Shown: one piece after another, positions 19,452-30,119 of the stretch
Layout: every line of letters begins with the position of its first letter
Position numbering within the stretch: the first letter of the stretch is position 1
Assembly (NCBI GenBank): GCA_963706325.1
Contig: CAVPLT010000001.1
Span: 64,001 to 128,000, forward strand
Source: an uncultured Nitrospiraceae bacterium
GTDB lineage: Bacteria > Nitrospirota > Nitrospiria > Nitrospirales > Nitrospiraceae
Reading direction: 5' to 3'
DNA length: 64,000 bases
The notes under the pieces: model-generated
Told to the model about the DNA's origin: nothing
Databases searched by the model: none
The model's input: only the letters and a program-made list of their open reading frames with translations
Made by a program: the position numbers and the translations under genes

Positions 19452-21170
19452 ATGAGCCACTTCTTACAATTACTCACGATATTGTTCGCCATCGGTGCTC
19501 CACTTTTCGCCAGCGTTGCAATCGCCCTACTCGGAGAACGCGAGAACGAGCGAAGTGCCATGATCGGCATTGGGGCATTGGCCCTTTCCACTTGCGCGGC
19601 CCTCTTCTCGCTTTATCAACTCAGTGGCGACCCCACTGCCTTTCGACTGTCGGGGCCGCCGGCATCTCTCATTCCTATTGTGCTGGTGGATCGCCTCGCC
19701 GCGGTCATGATGGTGCTGATCACCGGCGTGAGTCTCGTCATCCACGTCTATTCCCAGCGATACATGCGCGACGATCCAGGCTACGTCAGGTTCTTCGGCC
19801 TACTCAGCCTTTTGACCTTCGTGTTGTTGTGCCTCGTCACCAGCGGGCATTTGCTCTGGCTCTTCCTGTCCTGGCATGCCGTCACCTGGCTACTCAGGAG
19901 CCTGCTTACCTTCCATGTCGGAAACGCAGCAGCCCGACTAGCGGGACGCACGACCCTGCGGGTGCACGGCATCGGCGATGCCGCTTTTGTCTGCGCGATC
20001 ATTTTGGCCTATGCGACCTTCCACACATTCGACTTGTCGGAACTTTTTGATCTGGCGAACGGCGCCGCCGGCGCCACGACGATCTGGGAGGGAACATGGT
20101 TTGAGATACGGTCCGTGACGCTCATCACGCTTCTGCTGGTGGTGACCGTCATGACCAAATCCGCGCAGTTTCCCTTTCATGTGTGGCTGGCCGGCACCAT
20201 TGAAGCTCCGACTCCGGTTTCAGCCATGCTGCATGCGGGCATTGTGAATGCCGGAGGATTTCTCATAAACCGGTTGGCGCCCCTGTTTGGAATGGCCCCC
20301 ACCACGCTTTACGTGCTCTTTATCGTCGGCGCACTGACTGCCCTCATCGGAGCGGCGACCATGTTGACTCAGCCCAGCATCAAACGGACGCTCGTTTATT
20401 CCACCATGGGTCAGATGGGATACATGATCATGGAATGCGGCCTCGGGGCGTTCGCCTTGGCTGTGTTCCACCTCTGTGCGCATGGCCTATTCAAGGCAAC
20501 ATTATTTTTGAATTCCGGGTCGAACATCCATAAGGCACGAACCGAATTCAAGCTCCCCGATTCGCACAGCACACGGGATACCAGAGCATTTGCCTTCTTG
20601 CCATGGCTCACGGGCCTTGCCATTACGCTCATCCTTCCGCTGATCATCGTGCTCATGGCGCATGGAGTGGTGAACATTCCGCTCTTCGAAACGCAAGGCA
20701 CCCTGATTTTTCTCTTCTTTGCCTGGGTCACGTCCGCTCAAGCGACGTTCAGTCTCTATCGGCTCAACGCCGTCGGATCATGGAAGGTGTCTTTCACGAT
20801 GGTCGCCACCTTGTCCTTCATCGGGTTGACCTATCTGTGGGCTGGAGAGGCCTTTACTCATTTCCTGTACCCGGCCCAAGGCCAAACGGCGGCCTACTTC
20901 GAGGCGGCCGCTTGGAATCAGCGCCTCTTCGACGCTTTCGTCGCCCTTTCTACATTCCTGATTGTGGCCGTTTGGGTACTCCTTTACGGAAAGGCCCACG
21001 GGATGCGATTGCTGCTTCCTCACCGCCTCGACGAACTCCGCGACCGCCTCTACGTCGCCCTGCTCAATGGGCTGTATGTGGAAGCCTTGCTCCGCGCAGC
21101 TGGAGCCACCCTCGGCCGCAAGCCGGGCGGTGGACGCGAGAAACGGTCGTCTGAAGGACTGGCTCAATGA
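19452..21170 (+). CDS. dabB: DAB inorganic carbon pump membrane subunit (NuoL/MrpA-like)
   Basis: KSAQFPFHVWL, EAPTPVSAMLHAGIVNAGG, YSTMGQMG, HGLFKATLFL; ATGA overlap with the DUF2309 gene. Confidence 0.88.
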   Translation: MSHFLQLLTILFAIGAPLFASVAIALLGERENERSAMIGIGALALSTCAALFSLYQLSGDPTAFRLSGPPASLIPIVLVDRLAAVMMVLITGVSLVIHVYSQRYMRDDPGYVRFFGLLSLLTFVLLCLVTSGHLLWLFLSWHAVTWLLRSLLTFHVGNAAARLAGRTTLRVHGIGDAAFVCAIILAYATFHTFDLSELFDLANGAAGATTIWEGTWFEIRSVTLITLLLVVTVMTKSAQFPFHVWLAGTIEAPTPVSAMLHAGIVNAGGFLINRLAPLFGMAPTTLYVLFIVGALTALIGAATMLTQPSIKRTLVYSTMGQMGYMIMECGLGAFALAVFHLCAHGLFKATLFLNSGSNIHKARTEFKLPDSHSTRDTRAFAFLPWLTGLAITLILPLIIVLMAHGVVNIPLFETQGTLIFLFFAWVTSAQATFSLYRLNAVGSWKVSFTMVATLSFIGLTYLWAGEAFTHFLYPAQGQTAAYFEAAAWNQRLFDAFVALSTFLIVAVWVLLYGKAHGMRLLLPHRLDELRDRLYVALLNGLYVEALLRAAGATLGRKPGGGREKRSSEGLAQ

Positions 21171-24100
21171 CCACGCCCCGTCTACAGCCATTTACCGATG
21201 CGCAGCGAATGGAGTTACGGTCCTACGTGCAATTGGCGGGAGAAGCCATCGCGCAATATTGGCCGATGCGCACCTTTATCCATCACAATCCACTCCATGG
21301 TTTGGAAGCGTTGCCGTTCGATGAGGCGGTGAAGCGCGGCGCGCACCTGTTCGGCGGACGGGGATATCTCCATAATGAGATCTTTCGCGGATACTTGCAG
21401 CAGGGGCGCATCCTCAGCAGGGACCTGCGCGAAGCCCTTGCCCCCCTCGCGACCGGCAAAGAAGTCATGTTTGGAGAGCGCCGTACGACCCACCTCGATG
21501 TGCTGATCGCCTCCATGAGCCAAGGGGTCACCGAGCCGTTGCCTCGCGGCAATGGTGCTCACGGGAAGGCGGAGGCAGACGCAGAACTCATCGAAGCCGT
21601 CGCCCTTCATCTTGCGACGATCTTTCCTGCGCGACCGGCCGACTCGTCACCGCCTCCTCCCCAATGGGATCCCAACGCCTTACCCCGTCGCGAGTCCCTC
21701 AGTACGTGGTGCGATCAGACTCTGGGCACCACAATTGTAGAAACGATCAATCAAGAATTGGTCAAGTGGTGTAGCGTCTTTTTAGATGAGGGAGAGGCCG
21801 GTTGGGCCATGCCTCACCGAGATAAGAAGTTCTTTCGTGCCTGGAAGTCTCTGGCCCAATATGACGGAGTCCTTCGATGCCTGGGCATCAAAGAAGCCGG
21901 TCAACGAATTCGCGCGCTGCCGGATAGGACAGAGGACGCCGTGCTGGACAGTCTGGGCACACTCACACTGCCAAAACCGGTATGGGAAGAGTACTTGTCG
22001 CTTCACTTGGCGGCCTTGCCAGGCTGGACGGGCTACATCAAATGGCGTTCGAACCAGGACAAGTATCCCTGGCAACAACAATTTCCCATCGACCTCGTGA
22101 AATATTTGGCAGTGCGTCTGTTTTACGAACGGGAACTTGTGGAGCATGCATGCCGAAGCCACCTCGGGTTCGGGGGAACCTACGATGAGATTCGAACATT
22201 CATGGATGAATCACCTCATGCGTACTGGCTACGGCGTGAATGGATAGCAGGGCGCCTTTCGCCGACCTATGCCGACCTGACCCGGAAACTCGCATACTCC
22301 GACCGACGATTCGAACCGGCAGCCTGGGAAGAATTGGGCCGCACACAGTTCGCACTCCACGCGAAAGAGGATGACCAGCAGGGTCCCATGAAATCGGCGA
22401 CCTTCTTGGTACGACTGACTCGCGCGCTGGCAGTGCCCCTCTCCGCGATTGAATCAAGTTCCCCGTCCGACCTGACGACGATCCTCGATTGGCTCACCGG
22501 ATTTCCTCCTTCAGAGCACGGAGCCCGCTGGCTGGATGCGTTTGAGGCGAATCATCGGCGGCATCTGTTGCATGATCTCGGCATCGCCGCCGCTCGATAT
22601 GATGCCACCCCCCCACCGCAAGGCGATAGCCTCTCGCGGCCGCTCGCTCAAGTCGTATTCTGTATCGATGTGCGTTCGGAAGTCTTTCGCCGCCACCTTG
22701 AGCACCGCGGAGGGTACGAGACGTTGGGGCTGGCCGGATTTTTCGGCGTTCCTCTGGACTATCAGCCTTTCAGCACGCACGTGACGGTCTCCCAATGCCC
22801 CGTGCTTCTGAAACCGAAAAACCAGATTCGAGAAGTGCCTCGAAGTTATCATGGGAACTTGGCCGAGCGACACAAAACGGCGGCGCTGCTGGGAGAGGCC
22901 GGGCACCAATTACTGCACGATCTGAAGGAGAACGTGATCACGCCTTATGTGATGGTGGAGGCGCTCGGTTGGTTTTTCGGATTGCCGCTCTTTGGAAAAA
23001 CGTTGTTCCCTCGCTGGTATCACAACAGCATTCGTTGGATAAAGGAGGCGCTCCTTCCTTCGATTGCCACCACCTTGACGGTAGAAAAAATCTCGCGCGA
23101 TGCGGCGGATGACATGATCACCACGGAGCAGCATGCCCACATTCGAGAGATCCTTCGTGAACGGTTCGGACTCCGGGGCACAGCCCTCTCTCCGGCCCTG
23201 TTGGATACCATTCGAAAAAAAGCCCTCGGTCATGCGGAGGGACTCAACGGCGAGGTCGCGCGGGTGCTGGGGCTTGGTCAGGAAGCGGAAGAAGCCTTCT
23301 ATCGGGAATTGCGTGAGCGTTATCGAATCAGTCTACAAGGCATTTCTGATCGGCTGGACCGTCTCACACACACCGGGTTCTCGGTCACGGAGCAGGCGTA
23401 TTTTGTCGAGGCAGCCCTGAGACTCATGGGCCTCACCTCAAATTTCGCGCGCGTCGTTTTGTTCTGCGCGCATGGCAGCACCTCTCAAAACAATCCCTAC
23501 GAATCGGCGCTCGATTGCGGGGCCTGCGGCGGAAACCACGGACTGCCCAATGCCAGGGCTATCGCCACAATGGGCAACAGCCCCGGCGTTCGAGAAATCT
23601 TACGTGGGCGCGGCATCAAGATCCCTAGCGACACCCATTTCTTCGCGGCCGAGCATGACACGACCGCCGATCAAGTCCGCATCGTCGATCTGGAGGACGT
23701 CCCCCCGACACATCGGAAAGATCTCCAGCGGCTTATCACGGATCTGGAAGAGGCCGGAGCACAGACGGCCCTTGAGCGCGGCATCAGGCTGGAAATGCTT
23801 GTCGAATCAACTCAGGCCCACCGCGCCCGCCAACTGGCCGGCAGGCGGAGCGAGCATTGGGCGGAGGTCCGCCCCGAATGGGGACTCTCGCGGAACAGTC
23901 TCATGGTAATCGGACGACGCGACTTGACCCAGTCCGTGAATCTCCAGGGACGCGCGTTTCTTCACTCCTACGACTATCGGCAAGATGGCTCGGGAAGATT
24001 GCTCGAAAGCATCATGACCGCGCCGCTGGTGGTCGCGCAGTGGATCAACATGGAGCACTACTTCTCGACCGTCGACAACGAGGTCTATGGAAGCGGCAGC

Positions 24101-24436
24101 AAAGCCTATCACAATGTGGTCGGTCGAATCGGCGTCATGACCGGCGGAGCAAGCGACATGCGCCTCGGATTGCCGGCCCAAACCGTTCTCAAGGGTCAGA
24201 TGCCTTACCATGAACCCATGCGCCTCTTGGCCGTGATCGAAGCCCCCAGAGTGCGCATCCAGTCGATCATCGACCAGCACCCACATCTCGAGCAGCTGGT
24301 CACCCAGCGGTGGATTACAGTCGTGGCACTCAATCCGGAGGACCACACATTTGAGCGCTATGACAGTGTGAACGGATGGAGAGGAGGAGGAGCAGACGAT
24401 GATCAGTTTGACACTGCATCTCATGAAGGAGATTAA
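21167..24436 (+). CDS. dabA: DAB soluble subunit (DUF2309/UPF0753, beta-carbonic-anhydrase-like)
   Basis: WPMRTFIHHNPL; Zn ligands FCIDVRSE, AHGS..NNP, LDCGACGG; also EVRPEWGL and HEPMRL. Confidence 0.93.
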   Translation: MTTPRLQPFTDAQRMELRSYVQLAGEAIAQYWPMRTFIHHNPLHGLEALPFDEAVKRGAHLFGGRGYLHNEIFRGYLQQGRILSRDLREALAPLATGKEVMFGERRTTHLDVLIASMSQGVTEPLPRGNGAHGKAEADAELIEAVALHLATIFPARPADSSPPPPQWDPNALPRRESLSTWCDQTLGTTIVETINQELVKWCSVFLDEGEAGWAMPHRDKKFFRAWKSLAQYDGVLRCLGIKEAGQRIRALPDRTEDAVLDSLGTLTLPKPVWEEYLSLHLAALPGWTGYIKWRSNQDKYPWQQQFPIDLVKYLAVRLFYERELVEHACRSHLGFGGTYDEIRTFMDESPHAYWLRREWIAGRLSPTYADLTRKLAYSDRRFEPAAWEELGRTQFALHAKEDDQQGPMKSATFLVRLTRALAVPLSAIESSSPSDLTTILDWLTGFPPSEHGARWLDAFEANHRRHLLHDLGIAAARYDATPPPQGDSLSRPLAQVVFCIDVRSEVFRRHLEHRGGYETLGLAGFFGVPLDYQPFSTHVTVSQCPVLLKPKNQIREVPRSYHGNLAERHKTAALLGEAGHQLLHDLKENVITPYVMVEALGWFFGLPLFGKTLFPRWYHNSIRWIKEALLPSIATTLTVEKISRDAADDMITTEQHAHIREILRERFGLRGTALSPALLDTIRKKALGHAEGLNGEVARVLGLGQEAEEAFYRELRERYRISLQGISDRLDRLTHTGFSVTEQAYFVEAALRLMGLTSNFARVVLFCAHGSTSQNNPYESALDCGACGGNHGLPNARAIATMGNSPGVREILRGRGIKIPSDTHFFAAEHDTTADQVRIVDLEDVPPTHRKDLQRLITDLEEAGAQTALERGIRLEMLVESTQAHRARQLAGRRSEHWAEVRPEWGLSRNSLMVIGRRDLTQSVNLQGRAFLHSYDYRQDGSGRLLESIMTAPLVVAQWINMEHYFSTVDNEVYGSGSKAYHNVVGRIGVMTGGASDMRLGLPAQTVLKGQMPYHEPMRLLAVIEAPRVRIQSIIDQHPHLEQLVTQRWITVVALNPEDHTFERYDSVNGWRGGGADDDQFDTASHEGD

Positions 24437-24728
24437 GATCGTGGTTCAGGGCGACCATGTGAACCATGTCACCGACCTGCTCAACCGAGTCGGCGCGTCC
24501 GGCTATACGATCATCAACAGCGTATCCGGGAAAGGCCACCACGGATTCCACGAAGGGCATCTGCTGTTCAACGACACGAGCAGTCAGGTCATTGTGTTTA
24601 CCGTCGTGCCAAACGACAAGGTCGATCCGATCCTGTCCGGGCTGGGCCCGCTTTTCAATAAACATTCCGGCGCCATGTTCGTCACAGACGTAGCGGTCAG
24701 CCGACGAGAGCATTTCGCAGGCCAGTGA
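24399..24728 (+). CDS. PII-superfamily (SbtB-like) regulator
   Basis: MKEIKIVV, GASGYTI..VSGKG, C-terminal VAVSRREHF; strong RBS GAGGAGGAGG; overlaps the end of dabA. Confidence 0.85.
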   Translation: MISLTLHLMKEIKIVVQGDHVNHVTDLLNRVGASGYTIINSVSGKGHHGFHEGHLLFNDTSSQVIVFTVVPNDKVDPILSGLGPLFNKHSGAMFVTDVAVSRREHFAGQ

Positions 24729-24991: not shown

Positions 24992-25666
24992 CTATTTCAC
25001 CTTGGAAAAATCGGCCTCGAACTGCTGGAGTTGCCCATCTTGCAATGTCACGATCACAGTGGTCTTGACGTTGGGATCGAACGTGTCGTAACCGAATCGG
25101 GCGGTAAAACGCGAACGGTAGGCAGGACCTGCGACCTCATTTTTCCTGCCTCGGTCGGCCGGACTGATGTCCACCGGACGAATATTCTTCCCCTTCTGCT
25201 GAAACACGATGTCGGCCTTTTCGGCAAAGTACTCATCATCTCCGCAGAGTTGCACTTCGATTTCCATGTTCGGCATGTCCATGACCTTCTGGATAAACTC
25301 CTCGGGCATGCGCACTTCCTTCTTCTGCTTTTTCGATTCGGCCGCCTCCTGCCGACCGAACGCTTCGAGCCGATAACGCTTCGTGCGCAGGATGGCACTC
25401 GCGCCACATTGATCCTTTTCCGGGTCCGCGCCCACGCGCGTGACCATCGAGGCCTGTTGCAACACTTTCTTTACATCTTCAGGCGAATTGGCCTTTTCCA
25501 TCGGCGTCCGCCCGGCTTCCAAGGCCTTCTTGGCCTCATCGGGGGTCAACTTGGTGTCGATGGCCCACGCCATCCCGCTGATTCCCAACACGATCGACCC
25601 CAAGAGCAGCCCGACCATGCTGCGGGCGCCCTGGCGCCGAGCTGCCATTTCACTATGAGTGCGCAT
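24992..25666 (-). CDS. Hypothetical exported protein
   Basis: RBS AGGGAGGT before ATG 25666, signal-peptide-like segment ending MAWA, coding-like composition. Confidence 0.75.
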   Translation of the reverse strand: MRTHSEMAARRQGARSMVGLLLGSIVLGISGMAWAIDTKLTPDEAKKALEAGRTPMEKANSPEDVKKVLQQASMVTRVGADPEKDQCGASAILRTKRYRLEAFGRQEAAESKKQKKEVRMPEEFIQKVMDMPNMEIEVQLCGDDEYFAEKADIVFQQKGKNIRPVDISPADRGRKNEVAGPAYRSRFTARFGYDTFDPNVKTTVIVTLQDGQLQQFEADFSKVK

Positions 25667-26156
25667 GAGTACCTCCCTGACGCGTCTCTGAACAATGGGC
25701 CGCATTGTAAAGGGATGGGGAATGCTACGGCAAGAGGGACAGGCACATGTTGGTACGACGCGGACAGGTCTGATCCGTAAGCTGCGAATCGCGGGCTCAC
25801 AGGTGTGGAAGTCGCTCTAGACTCCGGATTTCGATCTGGCCGTGGTGTGGTTTGGCTGGTGCAGGCCTTCGTGACTGCTACCCGTTTTGAGTATAAAACT
25901 GCTACCCGGAGGGCCTCGCTTCGCGAATACTCTATTGGGGACGTGGCACGCGCAACGCGACGCAAAGATGCGCCGCAAAGACTTTGCTCCAGGGCAAATG
26001 CGGCTCCTCTGGGATGCGTTGAAGCCCTCGGTTGATCCCACCCAAGAGCGGGTCGCGGTCTCCAGACCGTTCCTACACCTCGCGCACATCTAGACAGCCG
26101 ACTAGGATGTCAGTAAGCTGGGGTTCTGCCTAGCTGCTTTATTTTGGAGGTCCCCG

Positions 26157-26345
26157 ATGAAGGTTTTTCGGAAACAGGTCGCTGAATACATCCGTGCGGC
26201 TGAAACCCTTTTATCACCTGCTTCTCTCGGAGAGCCTTTGACCAAAGATGAGTGCCACGTCGTAGAGCTGTACTCCAAGTCGATTGCTGATCATTGTGAT
26301 AGCCTCGGACACGGCACGACTGAAGAGTCATGCTCGGTGAGCTGA
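26157..26345 (+). CDS. Small hypothetical protein (62 aa, three Cys)
   Basis: GGAGGT RBS a few nt before ATG; amphipathic helical pattern; ends EESCSVS. Confidence 0.6.
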   Translation: MKVFRKQVAEYIRAAETLLSPASLGEPLTKDECHVVELYSKSIADHCDSLGHGTTEESCSVS

Positions 26346-26623
26346 ACCTTGTTCGACAGGCCCGCCCCTCCATCCCCTCCCCGGTTGGGGGCAGAATCGA
26401 TTCTGGACTTCCCTTCAACCATCAACCACGTGAGTATTTGACTCTGCTCCATGTCGGGCAACACATGTATGCGCAAATATTAGATGGGCTGGGTTGGATC
26501 TTCTATCCGTTTCGACCCGAAAACTGCTACCAGCTTGACGAGACATCTTCAAAAAAAATGGCGTAGGTTGGCGAACTGCAAAAGGACGGGGAAGAAAATT
26601 TCAATATCACGCTCCCTCTCACG

Positions 26624-27304
26624 CTAGGGATTAAATCGAGCCCAGTTCGGATAGGGCTTGAGGGCATAGAGTCGATCCACATCCACTGGGCACGGCACGC
26701 CACGCAGCCGCAACATGTCTGCGACCATACGTACCGGAAGTCCCACCGCGGCGGTGTAGTCACCTTCGATCCTATCGATGAGCGTCCCACCGGCCCCTTG
26801 AATGGAGTAGGCACCTGCCTTGCCGAGGCTCTCTTCGGTTTGCAGGTAGGCGGCCAGAGCATTCTCATCCAAGGTCTTCATAAAAACCCCCACCGTCGCG
26901 ACCTGCACATCGCAGAACCCACGAGTGTGCTCCACAAGCGCGACCGCAGTGAAAATCGTATGCGTCCGTCCAGACATTCGCCTGAGCATCGCGCCGGCAT
27001 CGATCAGATCACGTGGTTTTCCCAACACCTCTGAGTCCAAGCTGATTAAAGTGTCGCTGCCGAGAATGAGCGCATCGGGATACTGGGGCGCGGACGATAG
27101 GGCCTTTCCCCTCGCAAACTCCGCCACCTGCCGACCGGCAGGAAGATGCGGTTTCACCTGCTCGACGAACGGCGGGACCATGACCTCGAAGGGCAATCCG
27201 AGGAATGTGAGCAATTCCTTCCGCCTCGGTGAAGTGGAAGCCAGGACAAGTCGTGTGCTGGGATTAGGACGCACAGGGTTGAGATGGCTGAGACTCGACG
27301 GCAA
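26624..27304 (-). CDS. maf: Maf-family nucleoside triphosphate pyrophosphatase (YhdE-type)
   Basis: LVLASTSPRRKELL, GSDT, LGKP, GKAGAYSIQG, VGLP. Start TTG 27304 or GTG 27274; both overlap the dus stop. Confidence 0.92.
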   Translation of the reverse strand: MPSSLSHLNPVRPNPSTRLVLASTSPRRKELLTFLGLPFEVMVPPFVEQVKPHLPAGRQVAEFARGKALSSAPQYPDALILGSDTLISLDSEVLGKPRDLIDAGAMLRRMSGRTHTIFTAVALVEHTRGFCDVQVATVGVFMKTLDENALAAYLQTEESLGKAGAYSIQGAGGTLIDRIEGDYTAAVGLPVRMVADMLRLRGVPCPVDVDRLYALKPYPNWARFNP

Positions 27305-28448
27305 TTGTTTCGGCAGGATTGATGTCGTCCCTCATGAGATGGCTGCAACATTCTGCCACCACGCACTCGACCTCTCGAGGATGTGTCACCTGGAACATCC
27401 TGCCGCGCATCGCCGCAGCATGCGGGAACCCTGTGCAGTACCAGCCGAGATGTTTGCGAATGGACCGGAATCCTTCTAACCCGGCAATGGCTTCATACTG
27501 CCGCGCATGATCCAACATTACGTGCATCCGCTGGTTGAGTGAGATCTTCGGCTCCCAGGCCGTGGTCTCAAACAGTGACAGGTCGGCTTGCTCCCTGAAC
27601 ACCCGCCGGGCCAATTCCTTCCGGCGAAAAAACCACGGCGCGCCTAACGTTCCTCGCCCGACCAAGACCCCGTGCACGTGGGTTTCGGCAATACGGCGGA
27701 TCGCCGCCACCAATGAGTTGACATCCCCATTCCCGAGAATCAACGTATCGGTGCCGCGGGCCAGCTTGGCGGCTTCGGCGATGGCCGACCAATCAGCGGC
27801 TCCTCGGTACATCTGCTGGAGTGTTCGCCCATGTAAGGTAATCGCAGCCGGCGCAGCCTCCAGCAAATGGTCCACCCAGCGTTCGACCACGACACAGTCA
27901 AATCCCAGCCGCGTTTTGATAGAGAGTGGCAGCAGCCGGCGCGGAACTGTCGGCGTACCCGTGCGACTGCGGTTCAGCGTGTGAATGAACTCAATGCGAG
28001 CCGGCTTAAATCCCTGCGTCTCAATTACCTGACCGGTAGCCCAATCGGCCAAGCCTTGCCTCGCGGCCCTCACAATTTCATGGGCTAGATCCGGCGTTTT
28101 AATCAATGCCGCCCCTGACCCAGAGGCCGCCACATTCTTTGAAGGGCAGCCCATATTGATATCAAGCCCGTCGAATCCAAGTTCACAGACCACCTGCGCC
28201 GCACGATAAAACTGATCCGGATCTTTGCCATACAACTGCGCCACAATCGGGCGTTCAGCCTCGCTATAGATCAATGATGACAGCAGATGGTCCGGACCAC
28301 GACAGATCTCACTGACATTCGTGAACTCGGTAAAGGTAATGTCCGGACGACCCTGAGAAGCTACTACTCGCCGAAAGGTGGCATCGGTGACTCCATCCAT
28401 CGGCGCCAACCCCAAAATAGGCTGGGGGAGCATCGTCCAAAAGCTCAT
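27264..28448 (-). CDS. dus: tRNA-dihydrouridine synthase family flavoprotein
   Basis: LAPMDGVTD, DINMGCP, SIKTRLG, LHGRT, GNGDV, RKHLGWY. ATG 28448 overlaps the upstream stop (ATGA). Confidence 0.9.
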   Translation of the reverse strand: MSFWTMLPQPILGLAPMDGVTDATFRRVVASQGRPDITFTEFTNVSEICRGPDHLLSSLIYSEAERPIVAQLYGKDPDQFYRAAQVVCELGFDGLDINMGCPSKNVAASGSGAALIKTPDLAHEIVRAARQGLADWATGQVIETQGFKPARIEFIHTLNRSRTGTPTVPRRLLPLSIKTRLGFDCVVVERWVDHLLEAAPAAITLHGRTLQQMYRGAADWSAIAEAAKLARGTDTLILGNGDVNSLVAAIRRIAETHVHGVLVGRGTLGAPWFFRRKELARRVFREQADLSLFETTAWEPKISLNQRMHVMLDHARQYEAIAGLEGFRSIRKHLGWYCTGFPHAAAMRGRMFQVTHPREVECVVAECCSHLMRDDINPAETIAVESQPSQPCAS

Positions 28449-29929
28449 GCGGGCACCTCGTCCGCCCCGACCGGCTCGTTCGCCACGCGATAGGCTGCCC
28501 GCAATTCTTCGGCTTCCTCCGTCACAATCGCGCAAGCGTCGGGACAGCGCGCTACCGCAAACTCCACAAATCGATCGATCTTTAGAAGGAAAAAGTCAAA
28601 GTCATCCTGTTCCAGTCTTGGCTTGTCGAACCAGAAGTGGATGAACTGGACGAGCGAAATATTCGCGGCGAGCAGCAGCGCACAGGTCCTCGGAAACATG
28701 TCCGTCAATTCGCCACCCCAATGCAGGAGCTCATGGGGAAGATAGCCGTCCCGATATCGATCAAGGTCCCCGAACGATCCGCCCAGCAATGAAAGTTCTG
28801 CGATCATCGGCATATGTTCAGGGGTTGTGACGAGTTCAACATAGGCTTGATACTGCCGATATAGCACCGCCCGTTCATCCGATGTCACGACAGTCTTTCT
28901 AGCTTGACCTGGCCCATATTCACACGTCTCCCGCTGTGGTAAGCCCTGGGTAGGGGTCTCTTCCAAACAACGCACTTTCGATTGAAACTGCTCAACAAAG
29001 CGGCGAAATTCGACAACAATCTCTTCAATGGACTTGTTATCGACTTCCAGGGCTACGCCTTTCAGTGACGTCAGCCGCGGATGGGATAACACCTGCGTTA
29101 ACAAATCGAACAAGACTTCTGGAATAGGAGCCCCATGGCTGTCAATCCAGTGCGGCAGCGCGGATCCATCCGCATGAACCTTGTGAATATGGCACCCGGT
29201 GAAAGCTGCCAGTCCGGCCACATGAATCTCAACCACCCGCTCCATCGGGAACGCATCCAAAAATTCGGCGACAAAGGCTTCCAGCGTTTGCCTTCGCCAC
29301 GCTTCCGTATAGCGATAGACGGTCCACAAGTGCCCCATATCCAGCACCAGGCCGCAAGCCACCTGCTTGGTCACGGCTTGAAAAAACGCGGGGATACCGA
29401 GAACGCCGCAGGCGAAATACGTCAGCGGCGGCATTTCCAGCAATACTAGTGTGCGAACGTTCGCAGATCGTCGCGCCTGCTTGTCGAGGTGTCCCTGCAC
29501 ATGCGCCAGATTCTCAGCCGTCATGCTGGCCGACAGGGCCGTATACAACGGCGGCAAGTAGGTTCCAAACGAGTATCCTGCCATGTGTTTGGTAGCACAT
29601 TCGTGATTCAGCCAAGCACTCCCCAGGGCGGCGATGTGCGCACAGGCTTCCGTCAGACCTTGTCGCCCTGAGCCGCTTTGGAGAAAATCCGGCTGCGTGA
29701 CCCAGAGTCCTTCGCCGTGGTAGGTCAGCTTGAGCGTGGGGAGTCGTCGTCGCACGCATTGCAGGGCGGAGGTCGTGGCTTTAAAGATCTCCAAGTATCC
29801 TGGTTGGAGCCCCTCCGCATAAAGCCTGTGAGCAAGGAGCATCACGTCCGGAGAATACACATCCACCGACAGTCCTAATCCATGCGGAATGATCTGATTC
29901 GCGCGTTGTATGAATTCGCTTTCCATCAA
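28445..29929 (-). CDS. DUF692 / multinuclear non-heme iron oxidative enzyme (MbnB/TglH/ChrH-like) with extra C-terminal domain
   Basis: GLGL start, YHGEG, LNHEC, LLEMP, GLVLDMGH, VEIHVAG, IDSHG, VALEVD in DUF692 order, then a ~170-aa C-terminal extension. Confidence 0.82.
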   Translation of the reverse strand: MMESEFIQRANQIIPHGLGLSVDVYSPDVMLLAHRLYAEGLQPGYLEIFKATTSALQCVRRRLPTLKLTYHGEGLWVTQPDFLQSGSGRQGLTEACAHIAALGSAWLNHECATKHMAGYSFGTYLPPLYTALSASMTAENLAHVQGHLDKQARRSANVRTLVLLEMPPLTYFACGVLGIPAFFQAVTKQVACGLVLDMGHLWTVYRYTEAWRRQTLEAFVAEFLDAFPMERVVEIHVAGLAAFTGCHIHKVHADGSALPHWIDSHGAPIPEVLFDLLTQVLSHPRLTSLKGVALEVDNKSIEEIVVEFRRFVEQFQSKVRCLEETPTQGLPQRETCEYGPGQARKTVVTSDERAVLYRQYQAYVELVTTPEHMPMIAELSLLGGSFGDLDRYRDGYLPHELLHWGGELTDMFPRTCALLLAANISLVQFIHFWFDKPRLEQDDFDFFLLKIDRFVEFAVARCPDACAIVTEEAEELRAAYRVANEPVGADEVPA

Positions 29930-30119
29930 GTCGCGTTTGGCTTATTTTGAAGCAACCATAGTCACTATACTTCTTGTGCAGTTTAAGCGCCTAACCTCTT
30001 GGTTGACAAGGGAAGATGGGGAAGCTGAACCACCACGTCGATCTGGTATACTTCCTTTCGACGTGGTGGTCGCCGGGTCAAAACGTCAGCCCCTCTCGTG
30101 GCGAGAAACAGGCTTAATC

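Follow-up and report, generated by a model that had tools for sequence, protein, structure and literature searches.

What does a multinuclear non-haem iron oxidase (MNIO) do when no peptide for it to modify is encoded at its side? The question is raised by a 64,000-nucleotide stretch from an uncultured Nitrospiraceae bacterium (GenBank assembly GCA_963706325.1, contig CAVPLT010000001.1, positions 64,001 to 128,000; the whole stretch is here called the window). Its minus strand carries an MNIO gene at 29926..28445, which encodes 493 amino acids (aa) from an ATG at 29926, with an alternative TTG at 29929, and is followed by genes for a tRNA dihydrouridine synthase (dus) and a Maf nucleotide pyrophosphatase (maf). 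A preliminary description of the sequence proposed that this MNIO may work outside the pathways of peptides that are made by the ribosome and modified after translation (RiPPs), either in uridine or RNA modification or nucleotide sanitising, or on Dus itself. A non-RiPP role is judged likely here also; the locus is an orphan with no local precursor gene. On balance, the evidence favours a housekeeping MNIO, fused to its partner protein, that hydroxylates or oxidises a non-cysteine side chain in trans on a cellular protein. No publication on this enzyme was found in the openly accessible literature, subscription papers lying outside the search.

The protein was confirmed as an MNIO by its match to PF05114 (49.6 bits against a curated cut-off of 25). 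In an AF2 model built from 89 sequences (pLDDT 90.6), a TIM barrel is joined to a helical domain through a flexible linker. The barrel (residues 1-323; 28958..29926, minus strand) has MNIOs at Foldseek ranks 1-9, with TglH and MbnB best (E 1e-11 to 1e-9), and endonuclease IV ranks below them (E 2e-7). All the DUF692-type metal ligands reported earlier are present (H70, E164, D196, H235, D262-x-H264 and E294), and none varies across the aligned homologues (89/89). E109, H199 and D296 are likewise invariant in 89/89; H108 is not (75/89). With E109 and H199 the nine-residue multinuclear metal ligand set is complete, every position being metal-binding and invariant, but two of the nine are swapped.

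The swap was overlooked in the preliminary description. In alignment with TglH, E109 stands in place of His107 and H199 in place of Asn187; the segment covering E109/His107 is low-scoring. These are the second His of site 1 and the Asn of site 3, which five canonical-type MNIOs of the phylum have as well. Among the 17 other-type rows, each shows the two swaps as a pair except P0264, which is canonical at both. A two-His iron site 1 together with a site-3 Asn, the pattern taken to mark the Cys-modifying MNIOs (MbnB, TglH, HvfB, BufB), is not found in the window enzyme. Why should this matter? In MbnB it is the iron held by two His to which the Cys thiolate of the substrate binds, and because of this the swap would argue against Cys chemistry. 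Nor does the enzyme reach the cut-off of a named NCBIfam equivalog (ApyH, 38.9 bits against 400; ChrH, 16.9 against 600). The bufferin/oxazolin maturases BufBC and HvfBC differ in having other ligands and equivalog scores that the window protein falls far short of (BufB, 36.5 against 310 bits; HvfB, 24.3 against 360), and the window MNIO is without a precursor, DoxX or PF09836 match. Judged by sequence, the enzyme is a member of the MNIO superfamily that lies outside every named subfamily and RiPP cluster type. A plasmid search returned 99 records, with ~25-31% identity among the 30 matches listed.

What is the C-terminal extension? It was previously put at ~170 aa, and the model agrees, with residues ~324-493 forming a low-confidence linker and then a helical domain at ~345-483 (partner domain, residues 345-493 including the stop codon; 28445..28894, minus strand). 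Modelled alone, the domain is all helical with zero strands, and the protein stops at residue 493; a RiPP recognition element (RRE, a winged helix) was not found in the model. The earlier suggestion that this domain represents a fused partner is borne out by structure prediction. TglI takes Foldseek ranks 1-2 (probability 0.84 and 0.57, E 0.37 and 0.95). In a VIA comparison with 48,161 chains, the helical domain of NGO1945, a DUF2063-RRE protein (PDB 3DEE), is at rank 1 (Z 5.5, rmsd 2.8, 76 aa), TglI at rank 4 (Z 4.9, rmsd 6.3, 125 aa) and MbnC at rank 19 (Z 4.2). That a predicted model should bring three MNIO partners into the top 19 of 48,161 chains by chance seems unlikely. Searched by sequence, the domain has no significant match in Pfam or PDB, and the Atlas candidates MbnC-like and SCO6045_C, at 0.83-0.88, fall under 0.9.

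The domain does not represent the PME-type 1 (DUF2063-RRE) partner in so far as PF09836 was unmatched in 39 C-terminal domains and in the window genome (96% complete). PME-type 2 partners are described, in the accessible part of a family survey, as DUF2063-like and often without a full RRE (PMC12452194). A DUF2063/TglI/MbnC-like helical domain directly behind the MNIO, without RRE strands and with NGO1945 and TglI as its best structural matches (at weak scores), is what is found in the window. TglH-TglI of the 3-thiaglutamate pathway (PDB 8HCI/8HI7) is the best Foldseek match for both domains, but consists of two chains, with an RRE, a dedicated precursor that has a C-terminal Cys, and the His107/Asn187 pair in TglH. 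Can a single chain suffice? An engineered HvfB-HvfC fusion was active and the active iron state requires the partner, according to the available part of that report (10.64898/2026.07.17.739211); by analogy, the natural fusion is therefore probably self-sufficient.

The ligand swap is not confined to the phylum; some Myxococcota and Planctomycetota carry the swapped group as well. Asp or Glu plus His occupies the two swapped positions in all 80 metagenome relatives, a count to be discounted somewhat, as the search pattern partly forced the His in these loci. In this wider group the partner is either part of the enzyme chain or encoded after it; a single partner family accounts for 28/80 loci, and many others are fusions. 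The partners are ~260-320 aa, the size of full two-domain partners. The housekeeping genes around it change from locus to locus (among them tgt-yajC, der, P450, uridine kinase, ahcY and sufE), no shared precursor was seen in the 80 loci, and RiPP machinery was recognised only at locus L294 (92 neighbours scanned). L294 is laid out like the std cluster, with partner, MNIO, carbamoyltransferase fusion, YcaO, likely TfuA and permease; its precursor would lie beyond the contig end.

StdE offers the closest hint of chemistry. It is an MNIO of the Streptomyces thermodiastaticus std cluster that, in the part of the source available, hydroxylates a lysine-derived side chain at its C-H bonds (PMC13174530), and an acid at the second site-1 position together with a His at site 3 can be read both in the StdE sequence and in L294. 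StdDE thus resembles the window protein in its ligand swap, in joining an MNIO with a partner, and in carrying out the non-Cys C-H hydroxylation that the window enzyme would perform. StdE differs in that its partner is a chain of its own with an RRE, and in having a precursor close by together with YcaO/TfuA, a carbamoyltransferase and a transporter; the window MNIO is a fused core gene with no RRE or cluster. A std gene cluster with its homocitrulline substrate is missing: the annotated neighbours include neither a precursor nor YcaO nor a carbamoyltransferase.

How widespread is the gene, and does it keep company with dus and maf? Among 401 genomes sampled from the phylum, the MNIO profile is found in 80/80 genomes of the window's own family (Nitrospiraceae, f1), in 25/25 of family f19 (putatively the Leptospirillum group, judged by gene content and a single source name), in 2/2 of f3 and in 7/40 of f2; two further genomes gave weak matches only. 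The closest homologues among named genomes are from Nitrospira/Nitrospiraceae, and profile searches show one strong copy each of the MNIO, Dus and Maf families in the window genome. In a quick tree of 78 rows these MNIOs form one clade (SH-aLRT 100) with f19 apart, which is consistent with vertical descent. Fixed in f1, f3 and f19, united in one clade and preceded by a conserved sigma-70-type promoter-like site, the MNIO behaves as a core gene. Two copies carry stops or frameshifts (G228 C1:2894089-2895548 and G216 C31:20490-21561), either by assembly error or by decay.

Linkage to dus and maf ends at the family boundary: it is seen in 22/22 f1 loci and in 0/18 loci of f2, f3 and f19, an outcome that the preliminary description had itself named as refuting its proposal. 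The MNIO gene lies after gltB-gltD in f2, ahead of an S4-pseudouridine synthase gene in f3 (locus L053), and near chemotaxis genes, which it precedes, or secretion and transport genes in f19. Dus and Maf family models found nothing at E<=1e-10 in 8/8 MNIO-bearing f19 genomes (G010, G019, G028, G042, G049, G060, G069 and G073), two of which are single-contig, and were positive in 13/13 f2 genomes; Dus and Maf protein queries found nothing at E<=0.1 in 5/5 f19 genomes, without a positive control. These results suggest that f19 tRNAs may be free of dihydrouridine, which is unusual for bacteria. Because f19 keeps the MNIO without detected Dus or Maf, the two are dispensable for its retention. The reverse case is found in f2, where dus and maf are adjacent in 13/13 genomes, nine of them without an MNIO match. 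At the equivalent chromosomal spot in f2, LOG or DHH is followed by dus-maf, with no MNIO. Are the absences real? In 5/5 MNIO-negative f2 genomes checked, no trace of an MNIO is left between gltD and the conserved gene that comes directly after it. The order of MNIO, dus and maf is a family-level arrangement, not a functional link. With the MNIO and dus-maf occurring independently in f19 and f2, the proposed function with Dus, Maf or uridine finds no support.

Within the family, however, the arrangement is tight. The dus gene (28448..27264, 394 aa, Dus family, PF01207) and maf (26624..27274, PF02545, TIGR00172, longest open reading frame from TTG 27304) are co-transcribed passengers. The head-to-tail overlap of the three genes, all on the minus strand, was correctly described: the MNIO stop codon overlaps the dus start in the ATGA at 28445-28448, and maf begins within the dus 3' end from either candidate start, TTG 27304 or GTG 27274. 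The latter is the likely start, because homologues are ~210 aa long. The ATGA overlap recurs in 54/78 Nitrospiraceae loci where dus was found and the MNIO-dus gap is <=10 nt in 76/78, so the arrangement is more than chance; the overlap suggests translational coupling. Across 80 Nitrospiraceae loci, dus directly follows the MNIO in 78/78 with room for it and maf follows in 71/71. A fourth gene, which the preliminary description did not mention, comes after maf in 63/65 loci with room. In the window it lies at 24992-25705 (minus strand) and encodes an uncharacterised protein with a signal-peptide-like N-terminus, two Cys and no Pfam match. A 918-bp insert at 25706-26623 parts it from maf, where relatives mostly have <300 bp; the insert carries short open reading frames only, and the single one tested has no Pfam match.

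Dus scores 192.5 bits with PF01207 and has the catalytic-region motifs, and does not reach the equivalog cut-off of DusA, DusB or DusC. Set against the Pfam and TIGR00737 models, all 35 Nitrospirales Dus aligned share an insertion of ~40 residues (at about 132-172). Maf scores 173.4 bits with PF02545 and is over the TIGR00172 cut-off; the R/T/Q residues noted before are there, in SPRR, GSDT and IQG motifs, a signature that we take to mark the YhdE-type Maf.

Upstream, a sigma-70-type promoter-like site is found at 29980..30009 (minus strand), ~53 nt ahead of the MNIO start. It was located by consensus scan plus conservation; the scan alone is at chance level (2 sites found vs 2.7 expected), and the site with its 18-nt spacer is kept in 70/80 upstream regions. 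A putative extended -10-like motif at 30042..30053 (plus strand), conserved in 74/80 upstream regions, faces a divergent CBS-PilZ gene. Promoter-like motifs for the MNIO operon and for this gene thus stand back to back at 29980-30053. On the other side of the operon, at 19452-24728 (plus strand), a membrane subunit, a 1089-aa protein and a 109-aa PII-like protein resemble a DabAB-type inorganic carbon transporter.

How might the enzyme work? A single-copy, vertically inherited MNIO would act as one self-sufficient chain with its DUF2063/TglI-like partner. Its di- or tri-iron centre, richer in carboxylates, would activate O2, and an aliphatic C-H of a non-cysteine side chain would be hydroxylated or oxidised on a cellular protein or polypeptide whose gene lies in another part of the genome. 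The dus and maf genes would share the MNIO transcript in Nitrospiraceae solely through the family-level gene arrangement. The family survey, in its accessible part, allows that some MNIOs may modify ordinary proteins, and names no tested case (PMC12452194).

Several points weigh against a housekeeping hydroxylase. Every characterised MNIO in the cited literature acts on a RiPP precursor, StdE included, a genuine RiPP enzyme whose precursor is encoded alongside it. Besides TglH, StdE is the sole characterised enzyme checked at both ligand positions, and its relative L294 is on a long, uncertain branch, so that close kinship with the window MNIO is uncertain. The ligand mapping itself derives from sequence alignment rather than from measured coordinates, and every partner-domain fold score is weak (Z 4.2-5.5, Foldseek E 0.37). 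The acidity of the protein (median pI 5.2) is hardly informative, as canonical MNIOs are equally acidic (pI 5.2-5.6).

Which cellular protein could be the target? The best-named candidate is uL16 Arg81, a lead rather than a result. RoxA (YcfD), of the JmjC fold, beta-hydroxylates this residue, and there is precedent for a stand-alone YcaO that modifies uL16, both according to the accessible part of one source (PMC13063428). As an Arg81 3-hydroxylase, RoxA acts on the beta carbon of a long basic side chain, which resembles StdE chemistry. Its fold and cofactor are unrelated to those of MNIOs, so it is a possible functional analogue only, but its distribution in the phylum is largely complementary. 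RoxA-like JmjC proteins occur in 18/401 genomes: 6/7 of f14 (no MNIO), 12/40 of f2, 0/80 of f1, 0/25 of f19 and 0/2 of f3. The one protein checked has its match in the L16 arginine hydroxylase of E. coli (E 5e-63). RoxA is therefore absent from 107/107 genomes of the three families that always retain the MNIO (f1, f3, f19), and 12/18 RoxA genomes are without MNIO. In the 12 RoxA-bearing f2 genomes, from four genera, the MNIO is intact in 5, split in 1 and absent in 6, a loss alongside RoxA that looks like relaxed selection.

Could the MNIO be an unrelated replacement of RoxA in Nitrospiraceae and f19, oxidising the beta carbon of uL16 Arg81, a neighbour of the peptidyl-transferase centre, or else a comparable position on some other protein of translation? 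As so specific a claim it is unlikely, though it may serve as a guide. Six genomes carry both MNIO and RoxA, neither is found in 27 (reduced) f2 genomes and most other families, and f2 differs in habitat and genome size, with few independent events. A Fisher test of MNIO against RoxA (p 1e-4) is inflated by kinship and is not counted as evidence. In the available part of a Leptospirillum metaproteome, +14 is recorded on uL16 Arg81 in 14 entries, 2 of them with a further +16 placed on Met; Arg hydroxylation was outside its search (PMC4279252). The portion of the Leptospirillum modification tables covered is too noisy for naming a target. An EpmC-like role on beta-lysyl EF-P was rejected, with EpmA above cut-off in 1/48 genomes and none of these MNIO-bearing. 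EF-P of the window genome (C6:81728-82336) has Lys at the modified loop position, yet no EpmA is over the cut-off in the f1, f2, f3 and f19 genomes tested.

Might the enzyme instead be an ordinary RiPP maturase whose precursor gene lies elsewhere? The record of the characterised MNIOs speaks for this, and very short precursors would elude the searches; the explanation is nevertheless considered improbable. The earlier observation that no precursor, DUF2063 or DoxX gene lies at the operon holds, and the wider genome is also without DUF2063 or known precursor families: PF09836 (DUF2063), PF10048 (DUF2282) and TIGR04222 were not found in it, and neither bufferin motifs nor Nitrospira bufferin-like precursors gave a match. 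No conserved precursor gene was seen in 40 phylum-wide loci or in 79 upstream regions (open reading frames >=15 aa). A conserved upstream frame of 32 codons was rejected as a precursor, as a TGA interrupts the frame in the window and the bases conserved in it belong to the promoter motifs; the missing RRE also speaks against a maturase. An upstream hairpin is limited to the window and its closest relative, with no Rfam match at E<=1. In f19, a secreted-looking protein, Ala/Pro- then His/Lys-rich, with two Cys 11 residues apart, is encoded upstream of the MNIO and on the same strand in 9/13 loci (directly upstream in L038, at L038:7310-7726). It is possibly a metal-binding protein and would be the f19 precursor on this explanation, but its profile gives no convincing match in the window genome (best E 0.057), and it was not retained as a substrate.

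Two genes at the f3 locus were set aside as well. The 109-aa, Cys-free protein beside the MNIO (L053:7654-7983) has a homologue in the window genome (C1:715375-715731), with 54-77% identity across f1 and f2 and presence in 37/38 f1, f2 and f3 genomes; it occurs in 24/24 f2 genomes, 20 of them MNIO-negative, and in 0/13 of f19. The B12 radical-SAM gene occurs in 0/8 f19 genomes and in 2 MNIO-negative genomes, and was not found in 2 MNIO-positive ones. Accessory bufferin-like clusters do exist in some Nitrospiraceae (L122, L123, L124, L222-L226), with a secreted four-Cys precursor, a DUF2063-like partner and a DoxX-like gene. These genuine clusters are separate and patchy and their MNIO has canonical ligands, which argues against a similar role for the window MNIO.

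A non-peptide metalloenzyme is a further and quite doubtful explanation, whereby the barrel would be a small-molecule oxidase or an endonuclease IV-like hydrolase and the helical domain a structural lid. The 322 fold matches at E<=0.001 do include endonuclease IV and sugar epimerases, and neither an RRE nor a precursor was found; however, MNIO structures rank above these folds, the supposed lid matches MNIO partners specifically, and partners in the wider group have the size of full two-domain partners.

Does the enzyme act on RNA after all? An oxidase of RNA, nucleosides or nucleotides that serves uridine modification or sanitising, e.g. an O2-dependent tRNA or rRNA hydroxylase, would suit a barrel related to endonuclease IV, and known RNA hydroxylases were not found, irrespective of MNIO status (peptidase U32 in 0/25 f1, f2, f3 and f19 genomes, the TrhO domain in 0/5). 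RNA-related neighbours also recur: dus in f1, the S4-pseudouridine synthase in f3, tgt (L314), an FtsJ-type methyltransferase in 7 loci (on the opposite strand) and uridine kinase in 2. By a rough count, though, such neighbours are not clearly above chance, those FtsJ and uridine-kinase loci that were placed on the tree are kin, the neighbours are gltB-gltD in f2 and chemotaxis, secretion and transport genes in f19, and the MNIO is kept where Dus and Maf were not found. The protein has a net charge of -4 per 100 residues (Dus, +0.3), and its fused domain is like the partners of peptide enzymes. An RNA role is thus decidedly improbable.

That the MNIO modifies Dus (or Maf) is very improbable. 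The tight overlap in Nitrospiraceae and a Cys in the last 5 residues of 13/23 Dus might suggest it, but neither protein was found in the MNIO-bearing f19 genomes, and Dus with the same core persists in 9 MNIO-less f2 genomes. The tail Cys, rejected as a substrate, is absent in 10/23 Dus, including those of two same-genus relatives, and 8 of the 13 are spelled by the overlapping maf ATG; the earlier suggestion is unsupported. Equally remote is the fourth-gene protein as a substrate modified before export, as bufferins are: its place after maf, signal-peptide-like start and two conserved Cys favour this, but it is present in 24/24 f2 genomes (all 20 MNIO-negative ones tested among them), is unlinked there from both genes and was not found in 13/13 of f19, and the ligand swap argues against Cys chemistry. 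The protein occurs in 38/38 f1, f2 and f3 genomes and 0/42 others, usually with a distant paralogue (in the window genome at C4:494645-495370).

What would a housekeeping MNIO mean for Nitrospira? The enzyme behaves as a core gene of these nitrite oxidisers and is a natural enzyme-partner fusion with a distinct iron site. The one-chain format makes expression simple, and even without activity on uL16 the protein would be a tractable orphan for a new modification. If the replacement of RoxA were true, no other MNIO before this one would have had a housekeeping protein as its substrate. The replacement would explain why the MNIO is kept in 107/107 genomes of the RoxA-less families and is missing from 12 and split in 1 of the 18 RoxA genomes. 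A role would also suggest itself for the numerous MNIO-partner pairs that are orphans and share the ligand swap, and MNIO chemistry would then reach from natural products to the ribosome.

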